Assembly: GCA_016195685.1 (NCBI GenBank)
Contig: JACPZE010000026.1
Span: forward strand, 1 to 60,063
Direction of reading: 5' to 3'
Length of the DNA stretch: 60,063 nt
DNA from: Candidatus Gottesmanbacteria bacterium
GTDB taxonomy: Bacteria > Patescibacteriota > Microgenomatia > 2-02-FULL-39-11
Shown: piece by piece, positions 23,154 to 51,939 of the stretch
How positions within the stretch are numbered: position 1 is the stretch's first letter
Layout of the letters: each line of letters begins with the position of its first letter
Position numbers and translations under genes: made by a program
The notes under the pieces: generated by a model
What the model was told of the DNA's origin: nothing
Databases searched by the model: none
Seen by the model: the letters and a program-made list of their open reading frames with translations, nothing else

Positions 23154-24416
23154 ATGGCAAAAGTACTATTTTTCCCAGCTGGTGTAGGTCTTGCGCATGT
23201 TGGTAGAACTATTGAAGTGGCACATGCTTTACAAAAAGAAAACATTGATATCATATTTGGAGCAGGATGTGATGCTCCGGCTATTTTAGAAAAAGAAAAA
23301 TTACCGTATGAGATTATTCCGGAATTTGATCGTTCTACTTATGATAACAAAATTAAGCAGAATAATTGGTCAATCTATACCATCCGACTAATCAATAAAT
23401 TTGTTAAAAAAGAAGTGGAATTAGTTCGAAGTTATAAACCGGACTTGATTGTCAATGATGTAAGACTGACAGCAAAAATTACCTCAATTCTTACAGGTAT
23501 TCCTCTGGTATCCATAACCAATGTAGATGCATCAAAGTACTATGATTACTCCAAAATCAGAATGCCTTACAAAACTTATTTAGGTAAATTTTTACCGCCA
23601 AGAGTCCTATCATTTTTTGAGAAAGAAAAAGGTCAAAAAGTTTTAAGGAAAGTAAGTTTCAAGTTTTTGCAAACATTATTTTTACGTGAGCTTTTTAAAT
23701 TCAATATAATTCTTGGCAGGTATGGGAGAAGGCCATTTATTGATCCATTTGATCTTTTGACGGGGGATCTGACAATTCTCACTGATATACCACAATTTAG
23801 GCCTATTAGAAAGCTTCCTGAAAGCTTTAAACTAGTGGGCCCAATTTTTTGGAAAGGCGTCAAAAAATTACCCAAGTGGAGTACCGAAATCGATTCTAAA
23901 AAGAAAATTATCTACGTGACGGCTTCCGGTACGGGAGATAAAGATTTATTTATAAATATTTTAAAATATCTCAAAGATACTTCTTATACGGTTATCGCAA
24001 CATGTGGTAATACTTTGTCACAAAAAGAAGTAAAAATAAAAAATCCAAGACTGTTTTTGACAGATTATTTGCCGGGAGAGTGGATCATGAAACGAGCGGA
24101 TTTAGTAATATTTCCAGGCGGAAATGCTACAGCCTATCAGGCTCTTAGTTTTGGAGTACCACAAATAGGTACCCCCCTTCATCTGGATCAGGAGGACAAT
24201 ATGAATCAGTTAGTTCGGCTCGAAACTGGCATTATGTTAAATCCGAGAAAAGATTTTAATCGCAAAGTTCTTATAAATTCCGTAGAACATATTATGAGAA
24301 ATAAATCTTACAGAGATAATGCATTAAAGATAAGTAGGGAAATGAAGAAATATCATGGAGCAAAACAGGCGGCAAAAGAAATAATAAATTTTCTAAGGAT
24401 TCGTTCGTCCCGCTAA
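23154..24416 (+). CDS. GT-B glycosyltransferase (GT1/GT28-like)
   Basis: GVGLAHVGR, FPGGNATAYQALSFGVP, HLDQ. Confidence 0.8.
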   Translation: MAKVLFFPAGVGLAHVGRTIEVAHALQKENIDIIFGAGCDAPAILEKEKLPYEIIPEFDRSTYDNKIKQNNWSIYTIRLINKFVKKEVELVRSYKPDLIVNDVRLTAKITSILTGIPLVSITNVDASKYYDYSKIRMPYKTYLGKFLPPRVLSFFEKEKGQKVLRKVSFKFLQTLFLRELFKFNIILGRYGRRPFIDPFDLLTGDLTILTDIPQFRPIRKLPESFKLVGPIFWKGVKKLPKWSTEIDSKKKIIYVTASGTGDKDLFINILKYLKDTSYTVIATCGNTLSQKEVKIKNPRLFLTDYLPGEWIMKRADLVIFPGGNATAYQALSFGVPQIGTPLHLDQEDNMNQLVRLETGIMLNPRKDFNRKVLINSVEHIMRNKSYRDNALKISREMKKYHGAKQAAKEIINFLRIRSSR

Positions 24417-24478
24417 GCGGGACGACTACGGCCCTTTGTGCCACGCCGATATATTCAAACGATTATCGGATGCGGCCT
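24393..24478 (+). repeat. two-hairpin dispersed element (family E), copy 1
   Basis: Aligns along its length with the reverse complement of 51855-51939; supplies the last codons and stop of the GT-B gene. Confidence 0.8.
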
Positions 24479-24544
24479 AAGCAGTAAAAATATACATTAA
24501 TTCAGTACTGTTTATGGTAAAATAATTAAGTTTTTTCAAATTAC

Positions 24545-25354
24545 ATGAAGCCGTTTTTTTCAATAATAATTCCTACCCTTAATGAAGGAAAATATTTACC
24601 TACGATTCTTCAATCTCTAGCTAAACAGACGTTCAAGAATTTTGAACTTATCTTGGTAGACGGATACTCCAAAGACAAGACACTGGAAGTATTTAACAGT
24701 TTCAAGAATCGATTGCCTTTTTCAGTTTCTATTTTAAGTGACAAAACCAATGTGGGACTTCAGAGAAATATCGGTGCAGATAAGGCGAGGGGAAGTTATC
24801 TAATCTTCTTTGATGCAGATGTAGAGATAGGCCCTACATTTCTTGAAGAAATACATGTGCAAGCGATAAAAAAACCATTTCTGCTGGCTACGACCTGGAT
24901 GACTGCGGACAGTAAAAACCCTGTTGATCAGTTGATGGTGAAATTAGCTAACTTCGGATGGGAGATAGCAAAAAGCGTGAACCAACCATTTTTGGGTGGA
25001 TTTAACGTAATCATAAAAACTGAAACTTTTAAGATTTTAAAAGGTTTTCGTGAGGATTTAACTATCGGTGAAGATCGTGATTTAGCTAAACGCGCTCTTG
25101 CGAATAATATTGAATTGGCGATTTTAACTGAACCGAAATTAGTAGTTTCTCTTCGCCGATTTCGCTCAGAAGGAACATTAGAGGTATTACGCAAATATAC
25201 AAAAGCAGAAGTTTATGCATTTATAAATGGGCCTATCACAACTCAACTGTTTGATTACCCCATGGGTGGGCATGTACATAACAAAAAAAGAAAAAATAGT
25301 AGTTTTAAATCTTTGAAAAAAATTATAAAAAAATTCAATAAACTATTATCATAA
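24545..25354 (+). CDS. GT2 glycosyltransferase
   Basis: FSIIIPTLNE, DGYSKD, FFDAD, GEDRDL. Confidence 0.9.
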   Translation: MKPFFSIIIPTLNEGKYLPTILQSLAKQTFKNFELILVDGYSKDKTLEVFNSFKNRLPFSVSILSDKTNVGLQRNIGADKARGSYLIFFDADVEIGPTFLEEIHVQAIKKPFLLATTWMTADSKNPVDQLMVKLANFGWEIAKSVNQPFLGGFNVIIKTETFKILKGFREDLTIGEDRDLAKRALANNIELAILTEPKLVVSLRRFRSEGTLEVLRKYTKAEVYAFINGPITTQLFDYPMGGHVHNKKRKNSSFKSLKKIIKKFNKLLS

Positions 25355-25357
25355 ACT

Positions 25358-26725
25358 ATGCAAGTAATAACTGATCTGCAAATCCATTCCAAATATTCCA
25401 GAGCGGTTTCTCCACAGATGACAATCCCCTTTATATGGCAGTGGGCCAAAAGAAAAGGAATAGGACTTATGGCTACCGGTGATTGGACTCATCCTTTGTG
25501 GAATAGGGAGATCAAGGCAAATTTGGAGGAAACAGGGAATGGACTACTTAAATTAAAAAACAATGAAACAATGAAACAATGGAACAATGGAGAGATGGGT
25601 CCGTTATTTCTCCTAGCGACAGAAATCTCAAGCATTTATTCCCAAGGTGGGAAGGGCAGGAGAATCCATACCCTTATCTGGGCGCCCACTCTTGATACTG
25701 CTGATAAAATCAACAAAGAGCTTATAAGACGCGGTGCCAATCTGTATTCCGACGGGCGTCCAATAATAGGACTTAGTAGTATCCAGGTGGCAGAGTTAGT
25801 TTTCTCAATTGACCCCAAATGTTTAATAATTCCTGCTCATGCCTGGACACCCTGGTTTTCTATGTATGGTAGCCAATCCGGATTTGACTCGATAGATGAA
25901 TGTTACGGCCAATTTGGAGAAAATATCTATGCAATTGAGACAGGATTATCGAGTGATCCTTCTATGAATTGGAGGATAAAAGAGTTGGATAATAGAAGTA
26001 TTGTTTCTTTTTCTGACGCACATTCTGGTCCAAAGCTGGGTAGGGAAGCAACAGTTTTTGAATTGCCAGAATTAAGTTATAAAAACATACGGGAAGCAAT
26101 CATGAAGCCTGGCATGGATAATTCACAAATTTCCCAGGGAGCAAAAATTGCATTTACGACAGAGTTTTATCCGGAGGAAGGTAAATATCATTACACAGGG
26201 CACAGAGATTGCGGAGTAAAACAAACGCCTGTTGAAACGAAACAAAAAGGCACAACCTGTCCAGTTTGCGGTAGAAAACTTACCGTTGGAGTGATGCATA
26301 GAGTAGAGGAATTATCAGGAAGAAGCGAGGAAGATTTAAAACTTAAAACTTCCGAAATAGCAGGAACAAAACTGAAAGGCATTGTTTCAGCTTTGTTTCC
26401 AAATAGACCCGCCTTTATCAAACTTGTTCCCTTACAAGAAATAATAGCCGAAGTATTTGGAAGCTTACCAACGACACAGAAGACTCAAGATGAGTATAAT
26501 AAGTTGGTTGATAATTTCGGCAGCGAATTTAAGATTTTACTGGAAACTTCTCTTGAGGATATAACTAAAATATCAGGACCCAAAATCGCAGATGCCCTTC
26601 ACAAGGTACGCATAGGGGATATATTTATCGACCCAGGATACGATGGAGTGTTTGGGAAAGTGAAAATTTGGAGTGAAGAAAAAAAAGAAGAGGATTCACA
26701 GAAAGAGCAGATGAGTTTATTTTAA
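25358..26725 (+). CDS. endonuclease Q-family PHP protein
   Basis: DLQIHSKYSRA, TGDWTHP, HAWTPW, SDAHS, zinc ribbon HRDCG..CPVCG; ends QMSLF. Confidence 0.85.
   Translation: MQVITDLQIHSKYSRAVSPQMTIPFIWQWAKRKGIGLMATGDWTHPLWNREIKANLEETGNGLLKLKNNETMKQWNNGEMGPLFLLATEISSIYSQGGKGRRIHTLIWAPTLDTADKINKELIRRGANLYSDGRPIIGLSSIQVAELVFSIDPKCLIIPAHAWTPWFSMYGSQSGFDSIDECYGQFGENIYAIETGLSSDPSMNWRIKELDNRSIVSFSDAHSGPKLGREATVFELPELSYKNIREAIMKPGMDNSQISQGAKIAFTTEFYPEEGKYHYTGHRDCGVKQTPVETKQKGTTCPVCGRKLTVGVMHRVEELSGRSEEDLKLKTSEIAGTKLKGIVSALFPNRPAFIKLVPLQEIIAEVFGSLPTTQKTQDEYNKLVDNFGSEFKILLETSLEDITKISGPKIADALHKVRIGDIFIDPGYDGVFGKVKIWSEEKKEEDSQKEQMSLF
25561..25592 (+). repeat. octamer tandem array inside the EndoQ CDS
   Basis: caatgaaa caatgaaa caatggaa caatggag; encodes NNETMKQWNNGE. 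Confidence 0.8.
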
Positions 26726-26744
26726 TCTATTTATAAATAACAGA

Positions 26745-26853
26745 ATATAAATTTTTCAGACTCTGCAGCTTCCTTCGTCGCTTTTGCTCCTCAGGACAAG
26801 CGCGTTTACCCTGAGTTTTACGAAGGGCTCAATTGCAAAGGTCTTCAAAATTT
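26745..26853. repeat. family B palindromic element carrying an inverted pair of family C REP-like units
   Basis: Left arm 26/26 and right arm 25/27 identical to 6545-6647; the cargo differs. Confidence 0.88.
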
Positions 26854-26894
26854 ATATTTCTTGTTAAAATGAGCGCGAATCATTCATAGATTTT

Positions 26895-27860
26895 ATGTTA
26901 ACGATTAAAGAAATAAAGTTAGAAGATCATCTCTCTTGGGATGATTTAATTAAAGAAAGCAGTACCGCAACTTTTTTCCAGACAAAAGAGTGGTTAACGC
27001 TTTGGGTTAAGCATTGGTGCAAAAGCGGTGAAGTAGTGATATATGGTGTATTTGATAAGTATGAGTTGATCGGTATCGCCCCTTTTCATATCAGCGATAA
27101 AATTAATATATTAGGAGTCCCTGATCCATCTCTTGGTGGTTCTTTAAGCGATTTTGGAGATATTATCGCTAAGATTTCTTATGAGAAAATTATATGGCAA
27201 TCAATTTTAGCTAAACTCAACACTCATCCGTCAGCTGGCGGATCAAAACTCAAAACTGAACTGAATTATATAAGAGAGGAATCGCCAAGTCTTAAGATAC
27301 TTAGGGAATTAGGAGGACAGATAGAAAATATGGAAGTATCTCCATTTATAGATCTGCCAAAAACGTGGGATGAATATATGTCTTCACTTACTCGGCATGA
27401 TAGGCATGAAATTAGAAGAAAAACAAGAAAAATAGAAGAGGAGAATATCACAAAAATCTGCGATGAAATTAATCCTCAAAATATCAATGACTTTTTCAGA
27501 CTTATGGTTTCCTCAAAGGAAAAGAAAAGTGATTTCTTATCTTCCAAGATGAGAGTTTTCTTAAGCGAAATGATAATACAACTGGAACAGAAAAAACTTT
27601 TGACCTTGTGTTTTTTAAAGTATGAAAACGTAAATATTGCAGCAATCCTTTTATTATTCCAAAAAGATGAAGTGTTATTGTATAATTCCGGTTTTGAGAA
27701 GAAATACTCCTATCTTTCACCTGGACTTATATTAAATATTTATGCTATAAAACAAGCAATTGAAGAGAGGAAAAGTAGATTTGATTTCTTACGCGGAGGA
27801 GAAAAATATAAATACGATTTGGGAGGCAAAAATAGGAAGCTATATAAAGTCACTTTTTGA
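26895..27860 (+). CDS. GNAT-family protein (BcsL/FemAB-like)
   Basis: ATFFQTKEWL..W, LYNSGF..KY..LSPG, FDFLRGGEKYK. Confidence 0.82.
   Translation: MLTIKEIKLEDHLSWDDLIKESSTATFFQTKEWLTLWVKHWCKSGEVVIYGVFDKYELIGIAPFHISDKINILGVPDPSLGGSLSDFGDIIAKISYEKIIWQSILAKLNTHPSAGGSKLKTELNYIREESPSLKILRELGGQIENMEVSPFIDLPKTWDEYMSSLTRHDRHEIRRKTRKIEEENITKICDEINPQNINDFFRLMVSSKEKKSDFLSSKMRVFLSEMIIQLEQKKLLTLCFLKYENVNIAAILLLFQKDEVLLYNSGFEKKYSYLSPGLILNIYAIKQAIEERKSRFDFLRGGEKYKYDLGGKNRKLYKVTF
27214..27260 (+). repeat. heptamer array interrupted by an atccgtcagctggcggat hairpin, inside the GNAT CDS
   Basis: aaactca acactca [hairpin 27226-27243] aaaactc aaaactg; encodes KLNTHPSAGGSKLKTE. Confidence 0.75.
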
Positions 27861-28606
27861 TTTTTATGGATAAAAAAATTCTTGCAGTGTTTGCCCATCC
27901 GGATGATGAAGCTTTTGGTCCCGGAGGAACTCTTGCTCGATATGCAGCAGAAGGTACAGAGATTCATATTCTGACTGCAACGCGTGGCGAGGCAGGTTTG
28001 TGGGATGAAAACTCAAAACTCAAATCTCAAAACTCAAATCTAAAAATACACAATATTAGAGAAAAAGAATTACTTAATTCCGCAAAAATATTAGGAATAA
28101 AGAAAGTAGAATTCTTGGATTTTGTCGATGGGACGCTTTCTAACTCTATCTATCACAAGCTAGCAGATAAAATTATTCAAAAAATAGATGATTTTAAACC
28201 TCAAGTGATACTTACAACAGAAAGGTTAGGGATTTCGGGTCATCTTGATCATATCGCTGTTTCTATGACTACGACATATGCATACCTTCATTCCAAATAT
28301 GCCGCTAACAAACTTTATTACGACTGTTTGACAAAAGACAGAAGGACGAAAGATCTGAATGATTATTTTGTCTATTTCCCCGAAGGATACGACAAAGAAG
28401 ATGTCACTACCGTCATAGATTTCACTCCTTACTGGGATAAAAAAGAAGCCGCTATGAAATGTCATCAAAGCCAATTCCATGACGTGAGAAGGATATTAAA
28501 AAGATGGGAAGGACGAGAAAGGACAGATCATTTCATACTTCAATTCCATAGAGGTATAAACGTGCAACTTCCAGAAACTGATCTTTTTGCTGGAATTACT
28601 CATTGA
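27857..28606 (+). CDS. PIG-L family deacetylase (MshB/BshB-like)
   Basis: AHPDDE, TRGEAG, GHLDH, HQSQ. Confidence 0.9.
   Translation: MIFMDKKILAVFAHPDDEAFGPGGTLARYAAEGTEIHILTATRGEAGLWDENSKLKSQNSNLKIHNIREKELLNSAKILGIKKVEFLDFVDGTLSNSIYHKLADKIIQKIDDFKPQVILTTERLGISGHLDHIAVSMTTTYAYLHSKYAANKLYYDCLTKDRRTKDLNDYFVYFPEGYDKEDVTTVIDFTPYWDKKEAAMKCHQSQFHDVRRILKRWEGRERTDHFILQFHRGINVQLPETDLFAGITH
28008..28042 (+). repeat. heptamer tandem array (aaa(a/t)ctc x5) inside the PIG-L CDS
   Basis: aaaactc aaaactc aaatctc aaaactc aaatcta; encodes NSKLKSQNSNLK. Confidence 0.85.
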
Positions 28607-28657
28607 CTAAAAAAATCCAGGAGTGTTATTCTGAAATAAGAGAGTGGGTGATATTTT

Positions 28658-29005
28658 ATGGTAGATACAACAGGAAATAATGAAAAAATGATGGGAGCAG
28701 TTGCTTATCTTGTGGGTCCGCTGACCGGTATTTTACTGCTTGTGACAGAAAAGAAAAATGCTTTTGTAAGATTTCATGCTATGCAGTCTACTTTGGTTTC
28801 AGGAGGTTTCATACTGTTATATGTTGTGTTAGCAATTATACCAATCATAGGGTGGCTGATACTTACTATACTTTCGTTTATTATGCCTTTGTTATCATTT
28901 ATACTCTGGATAGTTCTCATGTGGAAGGCATATAGTGGTGAAAAATATAAACTACCTTATTTTGGTGATTTAGCTGAAAAACAACTGGAGAAATTGGGAA
29001 AATAA
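28658..29005 (+). CDS. DUF4870-like membrane protein
   Basis: AVAYL, FVRFHAMQS, KAYSGEKYKLP; three TM helices. Confidence 0.8.
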   Translation: MVDTTGNNEKMMGAVAYLVGPLTGILLLVTEKKNAFVRFHAMQSTLVSGGFILLYVVLAIIPIIGWLILTILSFIMPLLSFILWIVLMWKAYSGEKYKLPYFGDLAEKQLEKLGK

Positions 29006-29643
29006 TGTTTCAAAACAGAGAAGAAGCAGGGAAATTATTAGCGGCTGAACTTTCCAAGTATAAAAATAATCAAGATGCGGTTGTGTTGGCTATTCCCAGA
29101 GGTGGAGTAGTAGTTGGTAGACAAATAGCAGATAAATTATCTCTTCCTTTAATACTTGCTGTTGTAAAGAAAATAGGAGCCCCAGGAAATCCTGAATTAG
29201 CAATTGGCGCCTTAGCTCCATCTAATACAAAATTTATAGATTGGGATTTAGTATTTCGCAGCAATGTTGGACAAGACTATTTGGATGCAGAATTGGATGC
29301 AAAAAGAAATGAGATAGAAGAAAGGGTGCAAAAGTTCAAAATCCGCAATCTTAAATCCGTCATCCGAAACAAAAAAATCATAATATTAACAGATGATGGA
29401 ATTGCCACCGGTGCAACTACTCGAGCAGCAATTAATTACATAAAAATAATAACCAAAAACCAAGAAACAATAGCCAAAATCATATTAGCCATTCCGGTAA
29501 TTGCCAAAGAAACATATGATAAAATAAAAAAAGAAGTGAACAAAATCTTTGCTTTAGAAATCCCTCAATCATTTAATGCAGTAGGGCAGTTTTACAAGGA
29601 ATTTCCACAGGTCTCTGATGAGGAGGTAATGGAACTTTTATGA
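29005..29643 (+). CDS. type I phosphoribosyltransferase-family protein
   Basis: FQNREEAG, LAIPRGGV, DDGIATGAT, AVGQFY..F.QVSDEEV. Confidence 0.88.
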   Translation: MFQNREEAGKLLAAELSKYKNNQDAVVLAIPRGGVVVGRQIADKLSLPLILAVVKKIGAPGNPELAIGALAPSNTKFIDWDLVFRSNVGQDYLDAELDAKRNEIEERVQKFKIRNLKSVIRNKKIIILTDDGIATGATTRAAINYIKIITKNQETIAKIILAIPVIAKETYDKIKKEVNKIFALEIPQSFNAVGQFYKEFPQVSDEEVMELL

Positions 29644-32305: not shown

Positions 32306-32638
32306 ATGAAAAAAATAACTCAATCTTCTTCCATGCAAAAAGTAGGGGATGTCTTGGTGAAATTTAATCCTTTGGAGGATAAATACATTTCCCGTGAGTT
32401 TCAATCATATGGGTATTATCTGTCTGAGACGCTAAATGATCTAAAACATAGAGGTATCTATATGAGATTGGCCAAAACTATGCCCCGGGCTCTTTTGGAA
32501 AAAGCTTTATCCTATGTAAAGGATGCAAAAGTAACGAGAAAAGGGGCTCTTTTTATGTGGAAGTTAAAAGAACTTGGAGCATGGCCGAAAAAGGAAAAAC
32601 TTACCAAAAGAAAGCAAGTAGAAGATATACCTTTTTAA
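32306..32638 (+). CDS. hypothetical helical basic protein ending EDIPF
   Basis: 110-aa ORF in the same direction as folC; no family recognised with certainty. Confidence 0.75.
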   Translation: MKKITQSSSMQKVGDVLVKFNPLEDKYISREFQSYGYYLSETLNDLKHRGIYMRLAKTMPRALLEKALSYVKDAKVTRKGALFMWKLKELGAWPKKEKLTKRKQVEDIPF

Positions 32639-32793
32639 CTCCTCATTTACACTCTCTATCCTTATCTATTATGCTAAGGAGACGGGTCTAAATAACATAC
32701 TCATATTATTTAGATTGCGCTCCTTTGTGGCGCAAGGCAATAAGTAACATGGACTTACATTATTTACGTCAGCGCCCTAAATAGACAGGTATT

Positions 32794-33066
32794 ATGAACA
32801 AACGGGCCCATATTTTTATAAGAGGAGATGTCGTTGGAGTAGGATTCCGCTCCTGGATAGCGTCAAACGCAAAGGAATTAAAACTCACGGGCTGGGTAAA
32901 AAATGCTGACCAAAGATTGGTTGAAGCAGTTATTGAAGGGTCAGAGGAAAACGTGAAGCAAATGGTTGAGCGGTGCAATGATGGTCCTGAAGTGGCATGG
33001 GTGGAGAAAGTAGATGTGCAATGGGAAGAAGTAACAGATGAATTTGAAGGGTTTGAGGTAGAATGA
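32794..33066 (+). CDS. acyP: acylphosphatase
   Basis: GDVVGVGFR, GWVKN, VEAVIEG. Confidence 0.92.
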   Translation: MNKRAHIFIRGDVVGVGFRSWIASNAKELKLTGWVKNADQRLVEAVIEGSEENVKQMVERCNDGPEVAWVEKVDVQWEEVTDEFEGFEVE

Positions 33067-33070: not shown

Positions 33071-33124
33071 CAGCCTCGATATCGAATTATCTCGGGTCCT
33101 GTCACCCGTTGGTATCTTCGGCTG
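33071..33124. repeat. hairpin whose apex is the joined family A arms (empty-site form)
   Basis: cgggtcctgtcacccg at 33093-33108 inside a cagcc...ggctg stem. Confidence 0.7.
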
Positions 33125-39262: not shown

Positions 39263-41632
39263 CTAAACTTTCGATCTTTTCAGAAGTAGGGAATTAGATA
39301 CTACTGATATTGAAGAAGTAGCCATCGCAAGAGAAGCAAACATAGGATTTAAAAGTATTCCCCAGATAGGATAAAGGATTCCCATTGCTATAGGAATAAG
39401 TACTACATTATAAGCAAAAGCCCAAAATAGATTGAATTTAATAGTTCGCATAGTTTTTTTGGAAAGATTTATCGCTATAGCTACGGATTTCAATTCTTTA
39501 TTTATAAGTGTAATATCCGCCGCCTCGATAGCTACATCAGTCCCGCTACCCATGGCAATTCCTACATCGGCGGAAGCAAGTGCAGGTGCATCATTTATAC
39601 CGTCACCGACAAAAGCAATTACATTTTTAGATTTTAATTTACGGGTCCTGCCGCTCAGGTATCCCAAGCGACGATACATCTCCGCTTGGGACCCCTCCTT
39701 CGCGTCACCCGTAGTTAAAATTATTGTTTTATCTCTTAAATTCTGCACGATTTTCTCTTTCTCCTGAGGTAAAACTTCAGCAAAAACCTTATCTTTATCT
39801 ATTCCTGCAAGTTTTCCTATAGCTTGGGCTGTTTGAGTATTGTCTCCTGTGACCATATAAACATCGATTTTCATCTTCTTGAGTGTATTTACGGCCTCTC
39901 TTGCATCGGGTTTAAGAGTATCGGCTATAGCAAAGAGAGCAACATTTTTCTTATTGATAGCTACATAGGCTAAAGTTTTTCCTTCTTTAGCCCACAGATT
40001 TGCTTTTTTATCCAGTTCACTGCAACGCATGACTTTTTCCTTTTCCATAAGCTTCTTATTACCCACAAGAATATTGACTCCATCTGCCCTTCCTTGTATT
40101 CCATGTCCTTCAATTGCATAAACTTTATCAGTTTTTAATTCCCTGGCTTTATTTTTTAAATATTCAATGATAGCAAAAGATAATGAGTGCTCTGAGTGTT
40201 TTTCCAGAGAATAGATTAATGAAGAAATATAATCGTGAATTGATAAATTATTAGGGATATTAATACCTAAGTCAGTCCCAACATCATCAAGCTTTTCCAT
40301 GAAAGAGAAATCAGTGACTTTGGGTTTTCCGGATGTCAAAGTACCGGTTTTGTCAAAAATAACAGCGTTTATCTTATGTGCAAGTTCCAGACTTTCAGCA
40401 TCTTTAATAAGTATTCCATGTTGGGCACCTAATCCTGTTCCTACCATAATTGCAGTAGGGGTAGCCAGACCCATCGCACAGGGACAGGCAATGATCAAAA
40501 CTGCAATAGCATTAAGCATGGCAAATAGAAAAACAGGTGTTGGACCAAAAATGTACCATACAACGAAAGTAAAAATGGCCAGCATAATCACAATTGGTAC
40601 AAAGTAAGAAGATATTATATCTGCAATTCGTTGTATTGGCGCTTTACTTCCTTGGGCTTCTTGGACGAGCTTAATTATCTGGGCGAGCATGGTGTCGCTT
40701 CCGATTTTAGTTGCCTTGAAAGTAAAAGAGCCTGTTTTATTGATAGTTGCCCCAATTACGTTATCTTCTTTACCTTTCTCAACGGGAATACTTTCTCCGG
40801 TAACCATGGATTCATCGATCGATGATTGGCCTTCAATAATAATTCCGTCAACTGGAATTTTTTCTCCGGGACGAACGCGGATCAAATCTCCGATCATAAC
40901 TTCTTCTATCGGAATATCAATTTCTTTACCGTTTCGAATTACTCGAGCTGTTTTTGCCTGAAGGCCTATCAATTTCTTAATCGCTTCAGATGTTCCGGCT
41001 TTTGCCCGCGCTTCTAAATATCGGCCCAAGAGTATTAGAGAGATTATGATGGTGGCTACGTCGAAGTAGGGAAGGGGTTCTATACCGGTATTTTTTATAA
41101 ACTGTGGTAAAAAAGTTACAAATACCGAGTATCCATAGGCTACAGTAGTACCGAAGGCAACCAATGTATCCATGTTGGCAGTTCGATGACGTAGGGCTGG
41201 AATTGTAGCGCGGTAAAAGATGGAGCCGATCCAAAACTGGACAGGAGTAGCCAAAAATAATTGGAAGTAGAAATTTTTTAGGATAAATGGTGCAGTATCC
41301 ATGAGTCCCGGGAAGCTGCCCCAAAGTATAAGTCCTCCAATAATCAGGCTGAAAATTACTTTATCCCGTAATTCAATTAATTCCTTTTTCTTTTCTAACT
41401 CTTCCGAAGACTTATTATTTTCTTCAGCTAGTATCGCTTTATAACCGACATTCACAACTGCCGTTTCCAGATCAATATCTTTGACTTTTTGAGGATCGAT
41501 AGTAACTGTAGCTTTCTCGGTAGCTAGATTGACGTTGGCATCTGTGACACCAGCTACTCTCCCTAAGGATTTCTCCAATACTCTAACGCACGATGCGCAA
41601 TGCATGCCTTTGATGGTAAAAATTTTTTTCAC
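39263..41632 (-). CDS. copA: P1B-type copper-translocating ATPase carrying a repeat-derived insertion
   Basis: GMHCASC, TGES, CPC, DKTGT, GDGIND, YN; ~30-aa insert before NVIAFVGDG. Confidence 0.95.
39642..39711. repeat. family A palindromic element in frame inside copA
   Basis: 62/70 identical to the intergenic copy at 43540-43609. Confidence 0.92.
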
Positions 41633-43515: not shown

Positions 43516-43539
43516 TATTTAAGCTCGCATTATGATTTA

Positions 43540-43609
43540 CGGGTCCTGCCGCTCGGGTATCCCATACTACGATACATCTCCGTCTGGGATCCCTCCCTCG
43601 CGTCACCCG
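43540..43609. repeat. family A palindromic element (intergenic), followed by a degenerate heptamer run at 43627-43680
   Basis: 62/70 identical to the copA copy. Confidence 0.92.
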
Positions 43610-43682
43610 TTGTTAAAACTAATGTTTGAAAATTAAGCATTGTAAATTCATTAAAAATTGAAAATTTAAAATTAAAAATTGT

Positions 43683-44630: not shown

Positions 44631-44650
44631 TCTTCTTCATAAACATGTAG

Positions 44651-44679: not shown

Positions 44680-44685
44680 AAGTGA

Positions 44686-44823: not shown

Positions 44824-44870
44824 GAAATAAATGTCTTCTTCTGTCCTAAGACTGTCTTTTCTATTGGTCG

Positions 44871-44899
44871 TTGACCATTAAATCTAAAGTTGCTAAACT
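44871..44899 (+). promoter_or_regulatory. promoter of the ser operon
   Basis: TTGACC-17-TAAACT with extended -10 TG. Confidence 0.75.
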
Positions 44900-44905
44900 A
44901 GTGGA

Positions 44906-45119: not shown

Positions 45120-47009
45120 ATGGATAAAACATATTTCATCATCGATTTTGACAGTACTTTTGTACAGGTAGAGACGCTGGAAGTTTTAGCAGAAGTTGCT
45201 CTTTTGAAAAACCCGAAGAGAGATTTCATATTGGAAAAAATAAGAAAGATAACAGAGCAGGGGATGAATGGTAAGATCAGTTACGAGAAATCATTGGGAG
45301 AAAGGTTGAAATTATTTCAAGCCAGCCAAAAAAATGTGGATGATCTGGTAAAGATATTGAAAAAGAAGATCACTCCATCCATAACGCGCAATAAAGAGTT
45401 TTTCAAAAAATATAAAGACAAGATATATATCATTTCCGGCGGATTTAAGGAATACATGGTACCACTTTTTAAAACTTTCAAGATAGAAAAAGATCATATT
45501 TTGGCTAATAATTTTATTTTTGACAAAAAAGGTTACATCGTGGGTGTTGATAAAAAAAATCCCCTGTCTCATGCCAGAGGCAAAGCGGCAATAATAAAGT
45601 CATTGCAGCTTAAAGGTAAAATTTATGTGATCGGTGATGGCTACACAGATTATGAAATCAAAAAAGCAGGACTCGCAGATAAATTTTTTGTCTTTCACGA
45701 AAATGTGAAAAGAGAAGCTGTAATCGGTAAGGCAGATCATCTTTTGCCGAACTTCGATGAATTTTTGTACCAGTTGGATTTGCCAAGGGCGTATTCTTAT
45801 CCCAAAAGTAAAATAAAAGTATTATTGTTGGAAAATATCCATAAAAATGCTTTTGAAATATTTCAAAAGGAAGGATATCAAGTGGAGTCACTAACTGGCT
45901 CTTTTGACGAGGAAGAACTAATAAGGAAACTCCAAGATGTAAATATAGTCGGCATAGGATCCAGAACGCAGATTAGCAAAAAAGTGATAGAGGAGGTTCC
46001 TAGACTTCTATCTGTAGCAAGATTTGGAATAGGAGTAAATAACATAGATCTGAAAACCTGTGCTGGGGCTGGTGTTGCGGTATTTAACGCACCATATAGT
46101 AATACTCGCAGTGTGGTGGAATTAGCATTGGGTGAGATAATCATGCTTTACAGGCGTGTTTTTGAAAAAAGCGATAAGCTACATCGCGGAATTTGGGATA
46201 AATCCGCCAAAAATTGTCATGAATTGAGAGGTAAGAAACTTGGTATCGTGGGTTATGGAAACATCGGGTCACAAATTTCTGTACTAGCTGAGATGCTGGG
46301 AATGGAGGTATATTTTTATGATATTTTGGAGAGATTGCCTCTTGGAAAAGCAATAGTCTGTACTTCTTTAAATGAGCTTTTGCGAATTTCAGATGTCATA
46401 AGTATCCATGTAGATGGTAGACGTGAAAACACAAACCTTATTGGCGAGAAAGAATTTAAGTTTATGAAAGATGGAGTCTTGTTTATAAATACCAGCCGGG
46501 GGTCGGTAGTAGATTTAGAGGCATTAGCGAAGTTTGTAAAAAGTGGCAAAGTGTTGGGTGTTGCATTGGATGTTTTCCCCAAAGAACCCAAAAGTAACGA
46601 TGAGAAGTTTGTCTCGATAATCCAAGGGTTGCCGAATGTTATACTCACGCCTCATATAGGCGGCAGATCAGAGGAAGCCCAGGCAGATATGGGTAAGTTT
46701 GTGCCAGAGAAAGTTATAAGTTTTATCAACACTGGTAATACTACATTGAGTCTTAATTTTCCCAACTTGCAACTGCCGCAGCTTAGAAACGCCCATAGAC
46801 TTATACATATACATCATAACGTGCCGGGAGTTTTGGCAAAGATAAACAATGTTTTAGCTGCGAATAAGATTAATATCGAGGGGCAGTACTTAAAAACTAA
46901 TGAGGAGATAGGATATGTGATTACCGATGTCGATAAGTCCTACGACAAGGATGTTTTACAAAAATTACGCCAGATTCCCGAAACAATCAAATTCAGGGTT
47001 TTATATTGA
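45120..47009 (+). CDS. serA: phosphoglycerate dehydrogenase with an N-terminal HAD phosphatase (SerB-SerA-ACT fusion)
   Basis: DFDST, ISGG and GDGYTD HAD motifs; GYGNIG, NTSRG, TPHIGG; C-terminal ACT domain HHNVPGVL. Confidence 0.92.
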   Translation: MDKTYFIIDFDSTFVQVETLEVLAEVALLKNPKRDFILEKIRKITEQGMNGKISYEKSLGERLKLFQASQKNVDDLVKILKKKITPSITRNKEFFKKYKDKIYIISGGFKEYMVPLFKTFKIEKDHILANNFIFDKKGYIVGVDKKNPLSHARGKAAIIKSLQLKGKIYVIGDGYTDYEIKKAGLADKFFVFHENVKREAVIGKADHLLPNFDEFLYQLDLPRAYSYPKSKIKVLLLENIHKNAFEIFQKEGYQVESLTGSFDEEELIRKLQDVNIVGIGSRTQISKKVIEEVPRLLSVARFGIGVNNIDLKTCAGAGVAVFNAPYSNTRSVVELALGEIIMLYRRVFEKSDKLHRGIWDKSAKNCHELRGKKLGIVGYGNIGSQISVLAEMLGMEVYFYDILERLPLGKAIVCTSLNELLRISDVISIHVDGRRENTNLIGEKEFKFMKDGVLFINTSRGSVVDLEALAKFVKSGKVLGVALDVFPKEPKSNDEKFVSIIQGLPNVILTPHIGGRSEEAQADMGKFVPEKVISFINTGNTTLSLNFPNLQLPQLRNAHRLIHIHHNVPGVLAKINNVLAANKINIEGQYLKTNEEIGYVITDVDKSYDKDVLQKLRQIPETIKFRVLY

Positions 47010-47010
47010 A

Positions 47011-48087
47011 ATGAAAAATATATTTTTCACTCCAGGACCGACGCAGTTGTATCCTACCGTCGCCAGGCACCTTCAAAAGGCCATAAAGGAGGATATCGCC
47101 TCTATATCTCATCGAGGAGAGAAATTCCATGAAATTTATGATGATACTCAGAACGCTTTGAGGAAATTGTTAAAAATCCCAAAAGACTTCCAAATTTTCC
47201 TTCTTTCATCCGGCACGGAAGCGATGGAGCGGATTATAGAAAATACAGTTGGAGAAAGTAGTCTTCATCTTGTCGGCGGTGAATTTTCCAAAAGATTTTA
47301 TGAAACAGCGAATTTTCTACACAAAAAAGCCGAAAAAGTCGAGGTTGCCCCCGGGCTAGGATTTGATTTTGGTCAAATTGATATCGGCAGGCAAGTAGAA
47401 TTGGTTTGCTTTACCCATAACGAGACAAGTACAGGTGTAGCATTGCCGATGAATGAAATATATGGGATTAAAAAAAGATTTCCAGACAAACTGATTGCGC
47501 TGGATACCGTATCCTCATCTCCATACGTAGATGTAGATTTTGGATATGTTGATCTGTGTTTCTTTTCCGTACAGAAAGGATTTGGTTTGCCAGCCGGTTT
47601 GGGAATAGTGATAGTAAGCCCGACAGCAATGAAAATAAACGAGAGTCTGGAGCGGAAAAATTATATGGTAGGTACTTATCATAGTTTCGGTGAACTTTTA
47701 AAATATAGCGAGAAATTTGAAACTCCTGAAACGCCGAATGTCTTGGCAATTTATCTATTGGGGAAAGTAGCCCAGGATATGCTCAAAATAGGTATACAAA
47801 AGATAAGAAAGAATACCAAAGAGAAAGCCGATCTTTTGTATAATTTTTTCGAAAAACAAGAAGGATTTAGGCCATTTGTGAAAGAGAAGAAATATCGCTC
47901 AAATACTGTGATCGTAGTGGAGACGGATAATGATTCATCGGTGTTTATAGAAAAGTTGAAAAAGAGAGGGCTGGTAGTAGGGAATGGCTATAAGGATTTT
48001 AAAAACAAGCAGTTGCGTATCGCTAATTTCCCGGCACATTCAACAACTGATGTAAAAAGATTGATAAGAGAAATTAAAAATATATAA
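47011..48087 (+). CDS. serC: class V aminotransferase, probable phosphoserine aminotransferase
   Basis: FFTPGP, HNETSTG, DTVSS, SVQKGFG (PLP Lys), TPETP; lies between serA and serS. Start taken at ATG 47011. Confidence 0.82.
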   Translation: MKNIFFTPGPTQLYPTVARHLQKAIKEDIASISHRGEKFHEIYDDTQNALRKLLKIPKDFQIFLLSSGTEAMERIIENTVGESSLHLVGGEFSKRFYETANFLHKKAEKVEVAPGLGFDFGQIDIGRQVELVCFTHNETSTGVALPMNEIYGIKKRFPDKLIALDTVSSSPYVDVDFGYVDLCFFSVQKGFGLPAGLGIVIVSPTAMKINESLERKNYMVGTYHSFGELLKYSEKFETPETPNVLAIYLLGKVAQDMLKIGIQKIRKNTKEKADLLYNFFEKQEGFRPFVKEKKYRSNTVIVVETDNDSSVFIEKLKKRGLVVGNGYKDFKNKQLRIANFPAHSTTDVKRLIREIKNI

Positions 48088-48094
48088 TAAAACT

Positions 48095-49366
48095 ATGCTA
48101 GATATAAAATTTATACGGGAAAACTTAGAGCTTGTCAAAAAGGCAGCTGAAGATAAAAATCGCGAAGTGGATTGGGAGAAATTATTAGTGCTTGATGAGA
48201 AGAGGCGGAAATTGATTGTTGATATTGAAAGCTTACGCGCACAGCGGAATAAATGGTCAGATCTTAAACCACCAAATTTGAAAACAGGATTGACAGAGGG
48301 AAATAAAATCAGAGAGCAAGGAAAGAAATTAAAAGAGGAGATAAAAAAGTTAGAAGAAGAATTAAGTAGTGTTGAGAAAGAATTTACTACATTGATGCTC
48401 TTAGTACCCAATGTGCCCGATAAGAGCGTTCCAATAGGAAAAGATGCATCAGGAAACAAAGAAGTGAAGCAGTGGGGGGAAGTACCGAAGTTTGATTTCA
48501 AGCCTCTTGATCACATTGAGCTTGGTAAAAAATTGGATCTCATAGATTTTGAGCGAGGAGTGAAAGTGGGAGGATTTCGGACTTATTTTCTGAAAAATGA
48601 GGCAGCGCTTTTGGAAATCGCCGTATTAACATATGCATACCAAAAGTTAGCTAAAAAAGGATACATTCCGCTAGTTGCCCCATCACTAGTTCGTGGATTT
48701 ACTCTTTTTGGCAACGGCCAGTTTCCATGGGGTAGGGAAGAAGTTTATCATCTTGAAAAAGATGATATGTATATTGCAGGTACAGCTGAAGTCCCTGTGA
48801 CTGCTTATTTTGCCAATGAAATTTTAAACGAAAAAGAAATGCCTAAAAAATTTGTGGCATTTTCCCCTTGTTTCAGACGAGAAGCCGGAAGTTACGGGAA
48901 AGATACGAAAGGGCTTTACAGATTACATCAGTTTAACAAAGTAGAGCAGGTGATTATTACCACCAATGATTACGAAAATTCATTAAAACTCCACGAAGAA
49001 TTATTGGAAAACTCTGAAGAAGTTTTGCAGGATCTGAAGCTTCCTCACAGAGTGATGCTGATGTGTACTGGAGATATGGGTGAGCCTCAGGTGAAAAAAT
49101 ATGATGTAGAAACCTGGATGCCGGGAAGAAACGCATATGGTGAGACGATGTCTAATTCTTTCATGGGTGATTTCCAGGCGCGCAGATTAAACATTCGCTA
49201 CAAATCATCAGACGGTACTACTAAAGTTGCTCACACATTAAACAATACCGCCGTCGCCTCACCCCGAATTCTTATTGCCATCCTCGAAAATTATCAGCAA
49301 GCAGACGGCTCGGTAGTAGTGCCGGAAGTTTTACGGGACTTTGTGGGAGAAGAAGTAATAAAATAA
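48095..49366 (+). CDS. serS: seryl-tRNA synthetase
   Basis: MLDIKFIREN, GTAEVP, FRREAGSYG, HQFNKVEQ, HTLNNT. Confidence 0.97.
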   Translation: MLDIKFIRENLELVKKAAEDKNREVDWEKLLVLDEKRRKLIVDIESLRAQRNKWSDLKPPNLKTGLTEGNKIREQGKKLKEEIKKLEEELSSVEKEFTTLMLLVPNVPDKSVPIGKDASGNKEVKQWGEVPKFDFKPLDHIELGKKLDLIDFERGVKVGGFRTYFLKNEAALLEIAVLTYAYQKLAKKGYIPLVAPSLVRGFTLFGNGQFPWGREEVYHLEKDDMYIAGTAEVPVTAYFANEILNEKEMPKKFVAFSPCFRREAGSYGKDTKGLYRLHQFNKVEQVIITTNDYENSLKLHEELLENSEEVLQDLKLPHRVMLMCTGDMGEPQVKKYDVETWMPGRNAYGETMSNSFMGDFQARRLNIRYKSSDGTTKVAHTLNNTAVASPRILIAILENYQQADGSVVVPEVLRDFVGEEVIK

Positions 49367-49419
49367 TTCGAATCAAGCCATAATCAACCCCAGGGGTTAA
49401 AAACTGGCTGCGAGATATT

Positions 49420-50358
49420 TCATACAACAAGTGGAAGACTGGAAGGTCCAGCCGGAAGCACATGGCTGAAAGCCAGTTTTACTGCATGATTTTGCTCCAA
49501 TATCCTTTGCATTCCAGCCGGGTCGTTTAATAAATCGGCTATTGGCTGCATTCGACCGGCTGTGTATACTGTATGCGTTATGGCGTTAATATTATTTACC
49601 AATACTGGGTTTTTTGGGTTTCCACTCCCGTCAGGGGCAAGCGCATCCATCATTACTTCCCAGTCAATTGGAAGCCTGCCGCACATTCCAACCAGTCTTC
49701 CTAAGCCACCTAAAAGTGGATATTCATGTCTTTTCAGGACAATCTCTCTTTCGCCAATGTCCTGCGGGATGCCTGGGAGTTCAAGTCTCGTTTCAGGTTT
49801 AGGAAACAATCCAAACGCCACGATAAGATGAGGTAGACTGTTTCTGTCTTGGGGAGGAAGGTGTGAGATCCTATCTTGAATCAACGCATAAGCATCAGAA
49901 TACGCATCCTGGCTTCCTGCCATTATAGGAACAATGATATTAGAGATATCTCTATATTTTCCGTTTGAACCCATATGCTGCATCGCCTCAGCAGCATTTT
50001 CAAATACCGCATCGCAGACACCAAGATTTTTTGCAGTTTCACGCCGCCAGCCGGATTGTTCTATGCCAATTACAGGAAAACCGTAGTGATTGGCGATAAT
50101 AGCTAGGGGTAAACCGGTTGCGCCAAGACCCATAATAACCATAACGTTTTTATTGCCTTCACCTTTATATCCTCTTTCTTTCAATCCATTTATTATTCTC
50201 CAGAGATTTCCTAGACTTTCACATCTGTTTAGATCGCTAAAATAATTAAGCATCCGTTCATCTTCAACTACATGCCCAATTGCCGATGCTTCAACGTTAG
50301 CTACATTTGATCCGTAGCCGGGTAAGTGATAGGTAAAAATAGTTTCATCATGCGCCAC
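49420..50358 (-). CDS. C-terminal part of a split medium-chain dehydrogenase/reductase
   Basis: Rossmann motif VIMGLGATG, GIEQSGWRRETAKNLG; begins with a GTG 11 nt inside the upstream ORF. Confidence 0.7.
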   Translation of the reverse strand: MAHDETIFTYHLPGYGSNVANVEASAIGHVVEDERMLNYFSDLNRCESLGNLWRIINGLKERGYKGEGNKNVMVIMGLGATGLPLAIIANHYGFPVIGIEQSGWRRETAKNLGVCDAVFENAAEAMQHMGSNGKYRDISNIIVPIMAGSQDAYSDAYALIQDRISHLPPQDRNSLPHLIVAFGLFPKPETRLELPGIPQDIGEREIVLKRHEYPLLGGLGRLVGMCGRLPIDWEVMMDALAPDGSGNPKNPVLVNNINAITHTVYTAGRMQPIADLLNDPAGMQRILEQNHAVKLAFSHVLPAGPSSLPLVV

Positions 50359-50905
50359 GGGCTACTCTGGGTGTGACACCGGCTACAATAGTGTCGCAAC
50401 CAAGTGGAGCACATTGAGCATAGGAATCTGTATGGTATTCCAAATCGCCATCTTTCACTATAAAATGGTTTCCTGAAGCGTGCGAGTCCAAAATTACAAG
50501 TTTTTTATGCAATCTATTGGGAACATCTCCTCCCACACTTACAGCTACGCCATACCCTTCGTGAATAGTAACGACATCAGCAACATCTTCCCGTCTGCCT
50601 GCTTTAAACTCTTGGACTATACTAAGATCAGTATTACATACGCTGTTACCAAGCATAAAAAGAGTGACCTGATTGTCAAAAGGACGGCTAATAAATACCT
50701 GGTTCACAACCATTTGTCTTGGACCAAAACTGCTGAATTTGACAGCAGGGGACATTCCGAGAAATTCTGCGGTTACTAAACTATGTCGGCCTGAAAGATC
50801 AAAATCCGGCTGAGAATTGGCTCTTAAATGAGAAAGAACTTGTTGAACTGTACGGGCCTGTTTCCCGTCAAAAAAAACATCATGAAGTCGATTTGGCAAC
50901 TGCAC
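50348..50905 (-). CDS. N-terminal GroES-like part of the split MDR
   Basis: Catalytic-zinc motifs VCNTDL and HEGYGVAVSVG; ends in tandem TGA TGA. Confidence 0.7.
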   Translation of the reverse strand: MQLPNRLHDVFFDGKQARTVQQVLSHLRANSQPDFDLSGRHSLVTAEFLGMSPAVKFSSFGPRQMVVNQVFISRPFDNQVTLFMLGNSVCNTDLSIVQEFKAGRREDVADVVTIHEGYGVAVSVGGDVPNRLHKKLVILDSHASGNHFIVKDGDLEYHTDSYAQCAPLGCDTIVAGVTPRVARGA

Positions 50906-51061
50906 CCATATTCCAGGTCCAGACCGGTTCTCGGCATAATAGCTGATCTTGCGTGATATGTTCTTGTTTCTGCAATCATCGTCGTTAGCTGATTAGGGCA
51001 AGTATTGTCAGCGCGAATAATATACCCGAATTAGGAGATAAAGTCAAAAAGGTGAAAATCA

Positions 51062-51090
51062 TTGACATCAATGCATCATGATGCTATGAT
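51062..51090 (+). promoter_or_regulatory. vapBC promoter with a palindromic operator
   Basis: TTGACA-17-TATGAT; perfect palindrome GCATCATGATGC at 51073-51084; ATG 8 nt after the -10. Confidence 0.8.
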
Positions 51091-51098
51091 GATGCCAT

Positions 51099-51356
51099 AT
51101 GGACACAATTCGAACCACTATTAGTCTCCCTGTAGATTTACATGAAGAATTAAGACTGCTTTCCATCAAGAAAAAAAAGTCCCTTGGAGATCTTATTGAA
51201 GAGAAATTCAGGGGTAAAAAGAAAAAATCAAAGAAAATAAGTATTTCGGAGCAAATTAAAAAAGATTTTGCACTTTTTGATGCAACCGCCAGGTCATCTG
51301 TAAAATATGATGCTGTCCGCGCTGTAAGAGAGGATAGAGATAGGGATAATGCTTAG
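51099..51356 (+). CDS. VapB-like antitoxin (ribbon-helix-helix N-terminus)
   Basis: RTTISLPVDLHEELR; overlaps the PIN gene. Confidence 0.75.
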   Translation: MDTIRTTISLPVDLHEELRLLSIKKKKSLGDLIEEKFRGKKKKSKKISISEQIKKDFALFDATARSSVKYDAVRAVREDRDRDNA

Positions 51357-51783
51357 AATCATCATAGATGCAAGTGTCGTTTTGAAGTGGATTCCAGGGG
51401 AGGATGAAGAATTGGTTTCGGAGGCAAGACAAATATATGAAATGATGATGGATGATAAGTTGGAAGTTTATGCTCCCACTTTTTTGTTAATTGAGGTACT
51501 AAATATTTTGACTAGGAAAAGAAAAGCAAAATCTTCGTTAGTCAAAAAAGATATTAAACTACTAAGTGGCGGTAAAATAAAACTGGTAGATTTGAATGAT
51601 TATAATTTTAATGGAATAGTAGAATTAATATATAAATACAAGCTGACTGCCTACGACGGGCTTTATTGTTATCTAGCCAAAGTGAAGAACTGTAAACTTC
51701 TAACTGCAGATAAACAACTACTTAAGCTTCACGATTTAACAATTGATATAGGTCGTTTTTTGAAACTAATGAAATCCAATTAG
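51349..51783 (+). CDS. VapC-like PIN-domain toxin
   Basis: IIIDASV, EVLN, YDGLY, LLTAD. Confidence 0.88.
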   Translation: MLRIIIDASVVLKWIPGEDEELVSEARQIYEMMMDDKLEVYAPTFLLIEVLNILTRKRKAKSSLVKKDIKLLSGGKIKLVDLNDYNFNGIVELIYKYKLTAYDGLYCYLAKVKNCKLLTADKQLLKLHDLTIDIGRFLKLMKSN

Positions 51784-51854
51784 ATGAAACCTGAATTTAA
51801 ACCATCTTGACTTTCCCTATAGGATCTTTAATATATGATAAGATGAGAGTGTTT

Positions 51855-51939
51855 GGGCCGCACACGAAAAATATTGAAAATTCGGTGCGGCACAAAGAGC
51901 CGTAATTGTCCCGTTTAACGAGACAAACGAGCTCTTAGC
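51855..51939 (-). repeat. two-hairpin dispersed element (family E), copy 2
   Basis: Reverse-complement homolog of 24393-24478 with compensatory base changes; lies in the 5' UTR of the PP-loop gene. Confidence 0.8.

Follow-up and report, generated by a model that had tools for sequence, protein, structure and literature searches.

Three copies of a two-hairpin repeat in a Gottesmanbacteria contig

The DNA analysed here, a stretch of 60,063 nucleotides hereafter called the window (positions 1 to 60,063 of contig JACPZE010000026.1, GenBank assembly GCA_016195685.1), derives from a groundwater metagenome and is assigned to a Candidatus Gottesmanbacteria bacterium; its seryl-tRNA synthetase (SerRS) is 72-82% identical to those of Gottesmanbacteria. 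A preliminary description of the window had pointed to an element of about 85 bases with two hairpins, present in two inverted copies (copies A and B), and had proposed that it is either a structured non-coding RNA or a recognition element in single-stranded DNA. Our analysis indicates instead that these copies probably belong to a family of small mobile DNA repeats, non-coding, non-autonomous and similar to miniature inverted-repeat transposable elements (MITEs), and disfavours a riboswitch or a ribozyme.

As described, positions 24393-24478 on the forward strand align throughout with the reverse complement of 51855-51939 (80% column identity including the flanks), and the two copies, about 80% identical, adopt the same two-hairpin fold. 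The limits needed adjustment, however: the unit runs from CTAAG to CC-TAA and so spans 24393..24480 (+) for copy A and 51853..51938 (-) for copy B, the latter reading CTAAG ... GCGGCC-CAA. A covariance model built from 46 copies of the family recovered copy A, CTAA flanks included, at 79.5 bits (E ~5e-19) and copy B at 78.4 bits. It also detected between them a third, diverged copy that had been overlooked, copy C at 32674..32780 (+), with a score of 51 bits (E ~1e-11). Because this copy stands between A and B, and because many genomes carry scattered single units of the family, we rejected the possibility that A and B bound a 27-kb composite transposon or an invertible segment.

Copy A lies between a GT28-like gene and a GT2 glycosyltransferase gene and is flanked on both sides by CTAA (24393..24396 and 24477..24480, both +), a putative target-site duplication. 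Its hairpin 1 (24395..24436, +) consists of an outer AAGG/CCTT stem, then CG/CG and an inner TCGTCCCGC/GCGGGACGA stem closing on a TAA loop. The hairpin is real but longer than first reported, since it is enclosed by the outer stem; the changes listed for its inner part (tcgtcccgc-taa-gcgggacga in copy A versus ttgtctcgt-taa-acgggacaa in copy B, with two C-G to T-A swaps and one C-G to T-G) were read correctly. The junction CCTTTGTGCC (24433..24442, +) comprises the end of hairpin 1, the linker and the start of hairpin 2. Hairpin 2 (24440..24476, +) is formed by GCCACG-CCGATA ... TATCGG-ATGCGGC, its outer stem being made imperfect by an A.C and a C.A mismatch. Copies A and B have in common the linker TACGGC.CTTTGTGCC and the closing TGCGGCC. 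The first 24 nt of copy A make up the last eight codons of the open reading frame (ORF) 23154-24416, which stops at the TAA of the hairpin-1 loop (24414-24416), in agreement with the claim that one copy provides the stop codon of a gene.

Copy B, in which the outer stem of hairpin 1 is AAGAGC/GCTCTT, is found between a PIN-domain gene (51349-51783) and a 459-aa ORF (51945-53324) and is antisense to both. It had been said to fill the 5′ untranslated region of a MurL-like gene; it does occupy most of the 161-nt gap ahead of 51945-53324, but on the strand opposite to that gene, and the MurL-like label finds no support in Pfam, where the 459-aa protein has no match. Copy C is located between the ORF 32306-32638 and an acylphosphatase gene (32794-33066). 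Both of its stems are changed by compensatory swaps (AAGGAG/CTCCTT and GGCGC/GCGCC), the linker CCTTTGTG is retained, and CTAA occurs at each end.

The two copies originally described fold more stably than shuffled sequences (z = -3.6 and -6.5). Exact matches to the 16-mer core TACGGC.CTTTGTGCC occur in the window only at copies A and B, and the number of near matches was reached by none of 100 shuffles. Two weak core matches, at 49332 and 55350, fall within coding sequence and do not represent copies.

The repeat belongs to a family dispersed among Microgenomates

Outside the window, we found about 60 further copies in metagenome-assembled genomes (MAGs) of Microgenomates (Gottesmanbacteria and Roizmanbacteria), with up to eight per genome. 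A scan with an exact pattern over one genome per species returned 54 loci (designated by L numbers), comprising about 48 real copies and six chance matches in GC-rich genomes (L025, L030, L033, L046, L049 and L054). Nearly all the real copies come from Microgenomates MAGs labelled Gottesmanbacteria, Roizmanbacteria or "Patescibacteria group". With this pattern alone, Gottesmanbacteria GW2011_GWC1_43_10 yielded eight loci and several other MAGs three or four, compared to three copies in the 60-kb window. Metagenome contigs scanned with the 3′ end only (GTTATTAACGGATGCGGCC) gave 17 loci (15 full elements, one solo 3′ end and one chance match), some of them identical to MAG loci, for about 13 further distinct copies; these share the same core even though the pattern did not demand it. 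The family is specific to Candidatus Gottesmanbacteria and related Microgenomates within the Candidate Phyla Radiation (CPR).

Members are about 50-130 nt long, typically 85-110 nt, and contain no ORF of their own. Their order is a 5′ end GGGCTCGTYCRT, hairpin 1, the junction TACGGCCCTTTGTGCCGCA, hairpin 2 and a 3′ end GTTATTAACGGATGCGGCC, the extremities being GGGCTCGTYCGT ... ACGGATGCGGCC. Hairpin 1 is a palindromic module with a hypervariable apex and hairpin 2 a second palindromic module. The consensus reads cTAAGGGCTCGTyCRT-(variable stem-loop)-AYGRtTACGGCCCTTTGTGCCGCAyC-(variable)-caWGTTATTAaCGGATGCGGCC-taa. The junction between the hairpins (CCTTTGTGCC in copy A) is the most conserved stretch of the family, and CCTTTGTG persists even in copy C, diverged as it is, and in copies retrieved with a pattern from which it was absent.

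Several derivatives were observed. A 50-nt version in L003 (7503-7553) retains the two ends only, the first unit of L004 has the same ends around a different interior and stands in tandem with a normal unit, and in L057 a 3′ end standing alone truncates an EamA-like gene. In L007 (2975-3010) and L068 (~2590-2625, -), a 27-nt palindromic module, GAAGGTACCGTCTGGTACCTCCCTTTG, lies inside the linker and CCCTTTG is duplicated, so that a "hairpin + CCTTTG" unit can apparently be repeated.

BLAST searches of plasmid and phage collections with a consensus copy gave no match, and a scan of viral contigs gave no copy. None of the Rfam 15 models reached its gathering score anywhere in the window, and only chance-level matches appeared around copy A at E values up to 10, in line with the earlier remark that the element matches no known riboswitch or ribozyme. 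Searches of the literature on MITEs or repetitive elements in CPR, Patescibacteria or Microgenomates turned up nothing relevant. Judging from these searches, the family appears to be previously undescribed.

Many element-bearing MAGs (L002, L003, L005, L007 and others; CAY.../CAZ... accessions) are titled "uncultured Gammaproteobacteria". Their G+C content is low, their gene content and their element resemble those of Microgenomates, and the DNA of L043 is 68% identical to window positions 10533-11858; the title is probably wrong.

Inverted ends, flanking repeats and empty sites

The two ends of the consensus are inverted repeats of one another, GGCTCGTCCGTAAATAAC agreeing with the reverse complement of the 3′ end GCCGCATCCGTTAATAAC at 14 of 18 positions. 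Over 59 individual copies the mean was 9.1 matches of 18, compared to 4.65 in shuffled arms, and the best single copies reached 13 of 18. These terminal inverted repeats are imperfect, with a 12-nt core common to all subfamilies. They also explain why the GTTATTAAC "loop" of hairpin 2 is conserved, since it is the partner of the 5′ end.

The 4-mers flanking the element are identical on both sides in 36 of the 59 copies and are usually CTAA (permutation p = 5e-5). Five of the matching flanks depart from the consensus (CTTA three times, CATA and CTAT), whereas no such match arose in 20000 shuffles. Two copies of the same subfamily in the same MAG differ in this respect, L038 being flanked by CATAGG/CATAGG and L042 by CTTAG/CTTAG, and hence the flanking repeat belongs to the insertion and not to the subfamily. 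In the tandem pair of L004, TTAAGG occurs at all three junctions. Overall, the putative duplications would be of 3 to 5 bp. Among paralogous copies of the source metagenome homology starts exactly at CTAAG and stops at CCTAA.

Related genomes lack the element at orthologous positions. At the site of copy B, L090 has the PIN gene, 42 nt and a 458-aa gene, compared to 161 nt with copy B in the window; at the site of copy C, L092 has a 111-aa gene, 7 nt and the acylphosphatase gene, compared to 155 nt with copy C. L094 carries the 459-aa gene without the element. The upstream region in the window, minus copy B, is collinear with L094, which has a single TTTAG where the window has GTTTG, the element and CTTAG; this alignment, noisy at such divergence, fits a duplicated CTAAA target. 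The covariance model found no match in 100 kb of related Gottesmanbacteria contigs. No joined flanks were seen in the assembled contigs of the source metagenome, and identical-protein look-ups returned only contigs of the same strain, in which the element is present.

Stem pairing is maintained by compensatory changes

The preliminary description had inferred from two copies that pairing is maintained by compensatory changes. Covariation across 60 copies confirms this far more strongly than two copies could. Standard pairs occupy 97.9% of the stem cells of these copies, compared to 83.7% after shuffling; 13 of the 20 stem pairs show changes on both sides, and double-sided changes were counted in 154 cells where 41 were expected. 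None of 500 shuffles, and no slid register, came close to the observed pairing.

Nevertheless, the stem pairing does not look like the product of selection at the RNA level, for three reasons. First, the stem cells comprise 1124 Watson-Crick, 17 G.T and 7 A.C combinations, so changes went nearly always from one Watson-Crick pair to another. Second, the antisense strand is the more stable one in 40 of 59 copies, by a mean of about 1 kcal/mol, with similar G.U counts on both strands. Third, between the orthologous copies of L051 and L058 another palindrome has replaced the hairpin-1 apex as a block, while outside the apex only about 4 of 90 positions differ and the flanks are 84-87% identical. 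Such a change resembles the outcome of copying, from one arm or one copy to another, more than that of stepwise compensation. We also considered that the interior of hairpin 2 acts as a guide matching the flanking repeat, and rejected this because the CATAG of L038 does not extend to other copies.

Orientation and gene context

Orientation relative to neighbouring genes is random: with approximate gene calls, 18 copies are sense and 14 antisense to flanking ORFs, six lie between divergent genes and six between convergent ones. No promoter or terminator was predicted in or at the element, and as homology starts at its first base there is no conserved promoter upstream of it. Copies overlap stop codons and truncate genes. 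Taken with the dispersal of the repeat, its inverted ends, its flanking repeats and the empty orthologous sites, these observations speak against the structured non-coding RNA that had been proposed.

In three MAGs, a copy sits about 25 nt upstream of the efp start codon (L014 3038-3142, L040 7085-7189 and L052 3476-3580), each time with a conserved TGGGATAAT and a hairpin resembling a terminator (ACTCCCG...CGGGAGTTTTT) ahead of it. This efp-leader copy may be a co-opted leader, judging from its conservation.

PIN-domain (VapC-like) genes stand directly beside copies in four independent loci (window 51349-51783, L001 7409-7828, L022 6976-7401 and L040 6283-6918). Their adjacency may be due to chance or to a preference for such regions; as these genomes are rich in toxin-antitoxin genes, we treated it as a coincidence.

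The family resembles miniature transposable elements

The repeat combines the traits of a MITE: it is small and non-coding, has terminal inverted repeats and a target-site duplication, occupies many loci, and is present or absent at orthologous positions. Structured MITEs are known in bacteria, including ERIC/IRU in enterobacteria, Correia/NEMIS in Neisseria, and RUP and BOX in Streptococcus pneumoniae. The hairpin repeat seems closest in behaviour to these, the comparison being one of general descriptions and not of sequences. ERIC, Correia, RUP and BOX are likewise non-coding units of about 100 nt, present in tens of copies per genome between genes or at gene ends in both orientations; they have terminal inverted repeats, short AT-rich target duplications and a conserved folding, form subfamilies by insertion or deletion, and are occasionally co-opted in transcripts. 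In contrast, our element has no match in Rfam or in plasmid and phage collections, resides in a CPR lineage with genomes of about 1 Mb, and consists of two hairpins joined by an invariant linker instead of one long end-to-end hairpin; its inverted ends are short and imperfect, and its centre is the best conserved part.

Other known repeats share fewer traits with it. Tourist-like MITEs and IS5-family elements related to PIF/Harbinger duplicate TNA/TWA or YTAR targets. The CTAA/TTAG-like target of our element and its 3-4 bp duplication are similar, which offers a lead only, target descriptions alone being compared; no IS5-family transposase was found, and the variants CATA and CTAT do not fit YTAR. 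Rickettsia palindromic elements (RPE) are also small palindromic repeats of reduced genomes that can enter coding sequence, as copy A does, but the hairpin family is mainly intergenic and bears no sequence relation to them. Integron attC sites were rejected: the element has two hairpins and occurs in both orientations, with no cassette array and no integrase nearby.

We propose that a transposase supplied in trans would bind the 12-20 bp ends of the element and make a staggered cut at CTAA-like, AT-rich sites, duplicating 3-5 bp. The element would insert both ways round, with most insertions at gene ends and in short spacers between the genes of these small genomes. Under this model the window would record three insertions, among which copy A would have taken the place of the final codons and stop codon of a glycosyltransferase gene. 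Hairpin covariation could arise because the mobilising machinery requires ends in hairpin or cruciform form, from arm-to-arm copying by template switching or gene conversion, or from both; it is no sign of a role as RNA. Direct observation covers the existence of the family, its fold with the covarying pairs, the inverted ends and flanking repeats, the randomness of orientation and the absence from orthologous sites. The type of transposase is inferred, as would be any continuing activity or co-option of a copy.

Several observations weigh against such a MITE. A search of about 560 kb of element-bearing loci revealed no autonomous element sharing these ends, and no DDE transposase recurs among their clustered ORFs. 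The inverted repeats are short and imperfect, extending over about 12 nt only in many subfamilies, and the central junction CCCTTTGTGCC is conserved better than the termini. For a plain MITE, pairing in the stems is unusually rigorous, and it exceeds what a transposase would require in order to bind double-stranded ends. The sense-strand excess of G.T (17) over A.C (7) hints weakly at a strand-specific single-stranded form. Because empty sites were seen only between species (SerRS 78-82% identical), the base-level boundary rests on the one noisy alignment with L094. Finally, the orthologous efp-leader element is 97-99% identical among the three MAGs whereas the efp coding flank is 83-85% identical, which suggests constraint on individual copies.

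Plain selfish spread does not account for the conserved linker and the efp copy, and some copies may have been co-opted. The features left unexplained suggest one or more of the following: a structural need of mobilisation (hairpin or cruciform ends, or a host-factor site in the linker), frequent conversion between arms or copies, and co-option of some copies by the host. Given the strict pairing, the invariant linker and the efp copy, we see a modest probability that certain copies serve the host or are mobilised in an unusual way.

Y1 transposases and other alternative explanations

A loose search for the end motifs of an autonomous partner gave chance matches in coding DNA only. Inverted ends 0.4-4 kb apart were found only in L003, where they belong to two separate copies with a membrane-protein gene between them. 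The only transposase-like protein recurring in element-bearing loci is an IS200-like Y1_Tnp (PF01797), encoded in L044 at 4116-4778 (-), and in L068 at 6154-6810 (+) and 8041-8685 (-); further members of this protein family are encoded in L074, L078 and L081 at 2501-3166. We thus considered mobilisation in single-stranded form by an HUH Y1 transposase, in the manner of REP/REPIN-RAYT or of IS200/IS605-derived elements, in which the enzyme would read the hairpin shape together with the conserved CCTTTG beside the foot of hairpin 1.

This route would account for hairpins whose sequence is free while their pairing and an adjacent single-stranded motif stay fixed, as in REP and at IS200/IS605 ends, for the presence of two subterminal hairpins on the same strand, and for the G.T excess on the sense strand. 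The Y1 family is also widespread in Gottesmanbacteria, including genomes that carry the element; the gene of L044 lies about 0.9 kb from a copy, and L068 has two such genes. In addition, the inverted T(A/T)AGGGACGGTCCTTTG next to Y1 genes forms a mini-hairpin followed by TTTG (TAAGGGAC-GGTCCTTTG) and is similar to TAAGGGC...ACGGCCCTTTG of the element, and the 27-nt module of L007 and L068 duplicates a hairpin together with CCCTTTG. Against this, HUH transposition leaves no target duplication, and the flanking repeats here are copy-specific (L038 versus L042). The palindrome flanking Y1 genes, GGGACGGTCC, differs from the element and is not dispersed, and none of eight further Y1 loci contains the element. 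Y1 genes occur in 2 of about 45 independent loci, a number that chance could produce. The hairpins at IS200/IS605 ends resemble each other, those of the element do not, and there is no bias of orientation relative to gene direction.

As in REP/REPIN-RAYT and IS200/IS605-derived families, short dispersed palindromes keep their pairing as their sequence drifts, with a motif beside the hairpin, and the same genomes hold a single-copy, syntenic Y1 gene flanked by inverted palindromes. However, the element has inverted ends and the signature of a target duplication, its hairpins are unlike and in direct order instead of forming an inverted doublet, and the Y1-flanking palindrome is neither its sequence nor dispersed. 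Membership of the REP/REPIN-RAYT group was rejected for want of identity with the Y1 flanks and of inverted doublets. Assignment to IS200/IS605-derived elements, whose two hairpins would be similar where those of our element, subterminal and on one strand, are unlike in sequence, failed because the inverted ends and copy-specific flanking repeats are significant.

The Y1 protein, about 220 aa long and widespread in Gottesmanbacteria, is encoded in a conserved neighbourhood, next to a Ser_hydrolase gene in L074 and L081. Its genes always lie between inverted copies of (T/A)AGGGACGGTCCTTTG, the upstream one being followed by a TTGACA-type promoter-like sequence; the second Y1 gene of L068 is flanked by a different palindrome, CGATCCTGGATCG. 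On these sequence features, the family looks like a domesticated RAYT-like gene. The palindrome GGGACGGTCCTTTG occurs only beside Y1 genes and is not dispersed, and a model search at the eight further Y1 loci did not detect the element. Homologues, five gene contexts, inspection of flanks and this model search all left the Y1 protein unsupported as a partner beyond a short motif resemblance. As that resemblance remains, and as HUH enzymes leave no target duplication, we retain Y1 mobilisation as an alternative but consider it unlikely. The single-stranded DNA recognition element of the preliminary description is disfavoured by the target-duplication signature and by the different palindromes that flank Y1 genes.

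A related possibility, to which we give slightly less credence, is a CPR-specific structured module whose hairpins and CCTTTGTG would be read in single-stranded form, either as a REP-like substrate of Y1 that leaves target duplications or as a domesticated leader RNA or DNA under purifying selection, as upstream of efp.

A functional structured RNA, be it a small RNA or a cis-acting module for mRNA processing, stability or protein binding, with spread as a secondary trait, seems more doubtful still. Strong covariation, a linker that does not vary and a mildly higher count of G.U than of A.C would suit such an RNA, as would the conservation of the efp-leader copy far above that of the adjoining coding sequence and the few differences outside the apex of L051/L058 relative to their flanks. 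However, the element matches no Rfam family even at E values up to 10, it is oriented at random relative to the surrounding genes, and its antisense strand folds equally well or better. G.U intermediates are rare (1.5% of cells), there is no conserved upstream promoter and no predicted terminator, and copies overlap stop codons and truncate genes.

Conservative site-specific recombination, in which the end repeats would be an att-like core shared by circle and target (as in small integrative elements, IS607/IS110-type insertion or integron-cassette-like elements), is very improbable: it would account for the same short sequence found at both junctions, for the strong bias to CTAA targets and, through repeated integration, for the TTAAGG at all three junctions of L004, but none of the copies has a gene for an integrase, a serine recombinase or a DEDD transposase in its vicinity, copies do not form single-orientation cassette arrays, and the repeat varies among copies of one subfamily, which a fixed core would forbid.

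Significance and other repeats of the window

CPR bacteria have very small genomes that are generally thought to be poor in mobile DNA. The kind of element we favour, a MITE-like repeat, is ordinary for bacteria, and its host lineage is one where mobile DNA is thought scarce. The Gottesmanbacteria and Roizmanbacteria repeat would indicate that miniature transposons persist in CPR and reshape gene ends, as exemplified in the window by one copy that provides a stop codon and another located 6 nt from a start codon. For annotation, the family accounts for several conserved GC-rich hairpins that might otherwise be taken for riboswitches or terminators, and it is likely to break MAG assemblies.

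The window contains other repeats. A second, unrelated GC-rich repeat of about 100-120 nt (ACGGGTCCTGCCGCTC...CTCGCGTCACCCGT) occurs at 39631-39729, 43529-43627 and 55557-55676, with partial copies at 6660-6694 and ~33080-33115, and two of its copies are 87% identical. One of them, at 39631-39729, is an in-frame part of a P-type ATPase ORF (39263-41632, -) and contributes about 33 residues immediately ahead of the conserved VGDGINDAP motif, much like an RPE. A repeat finder also detected runs of A-rich heptamers (CAAAAAT/CAAAAAC) at 13581-13626, 20919-20964 and 28008-28039, about 7 kb apart.

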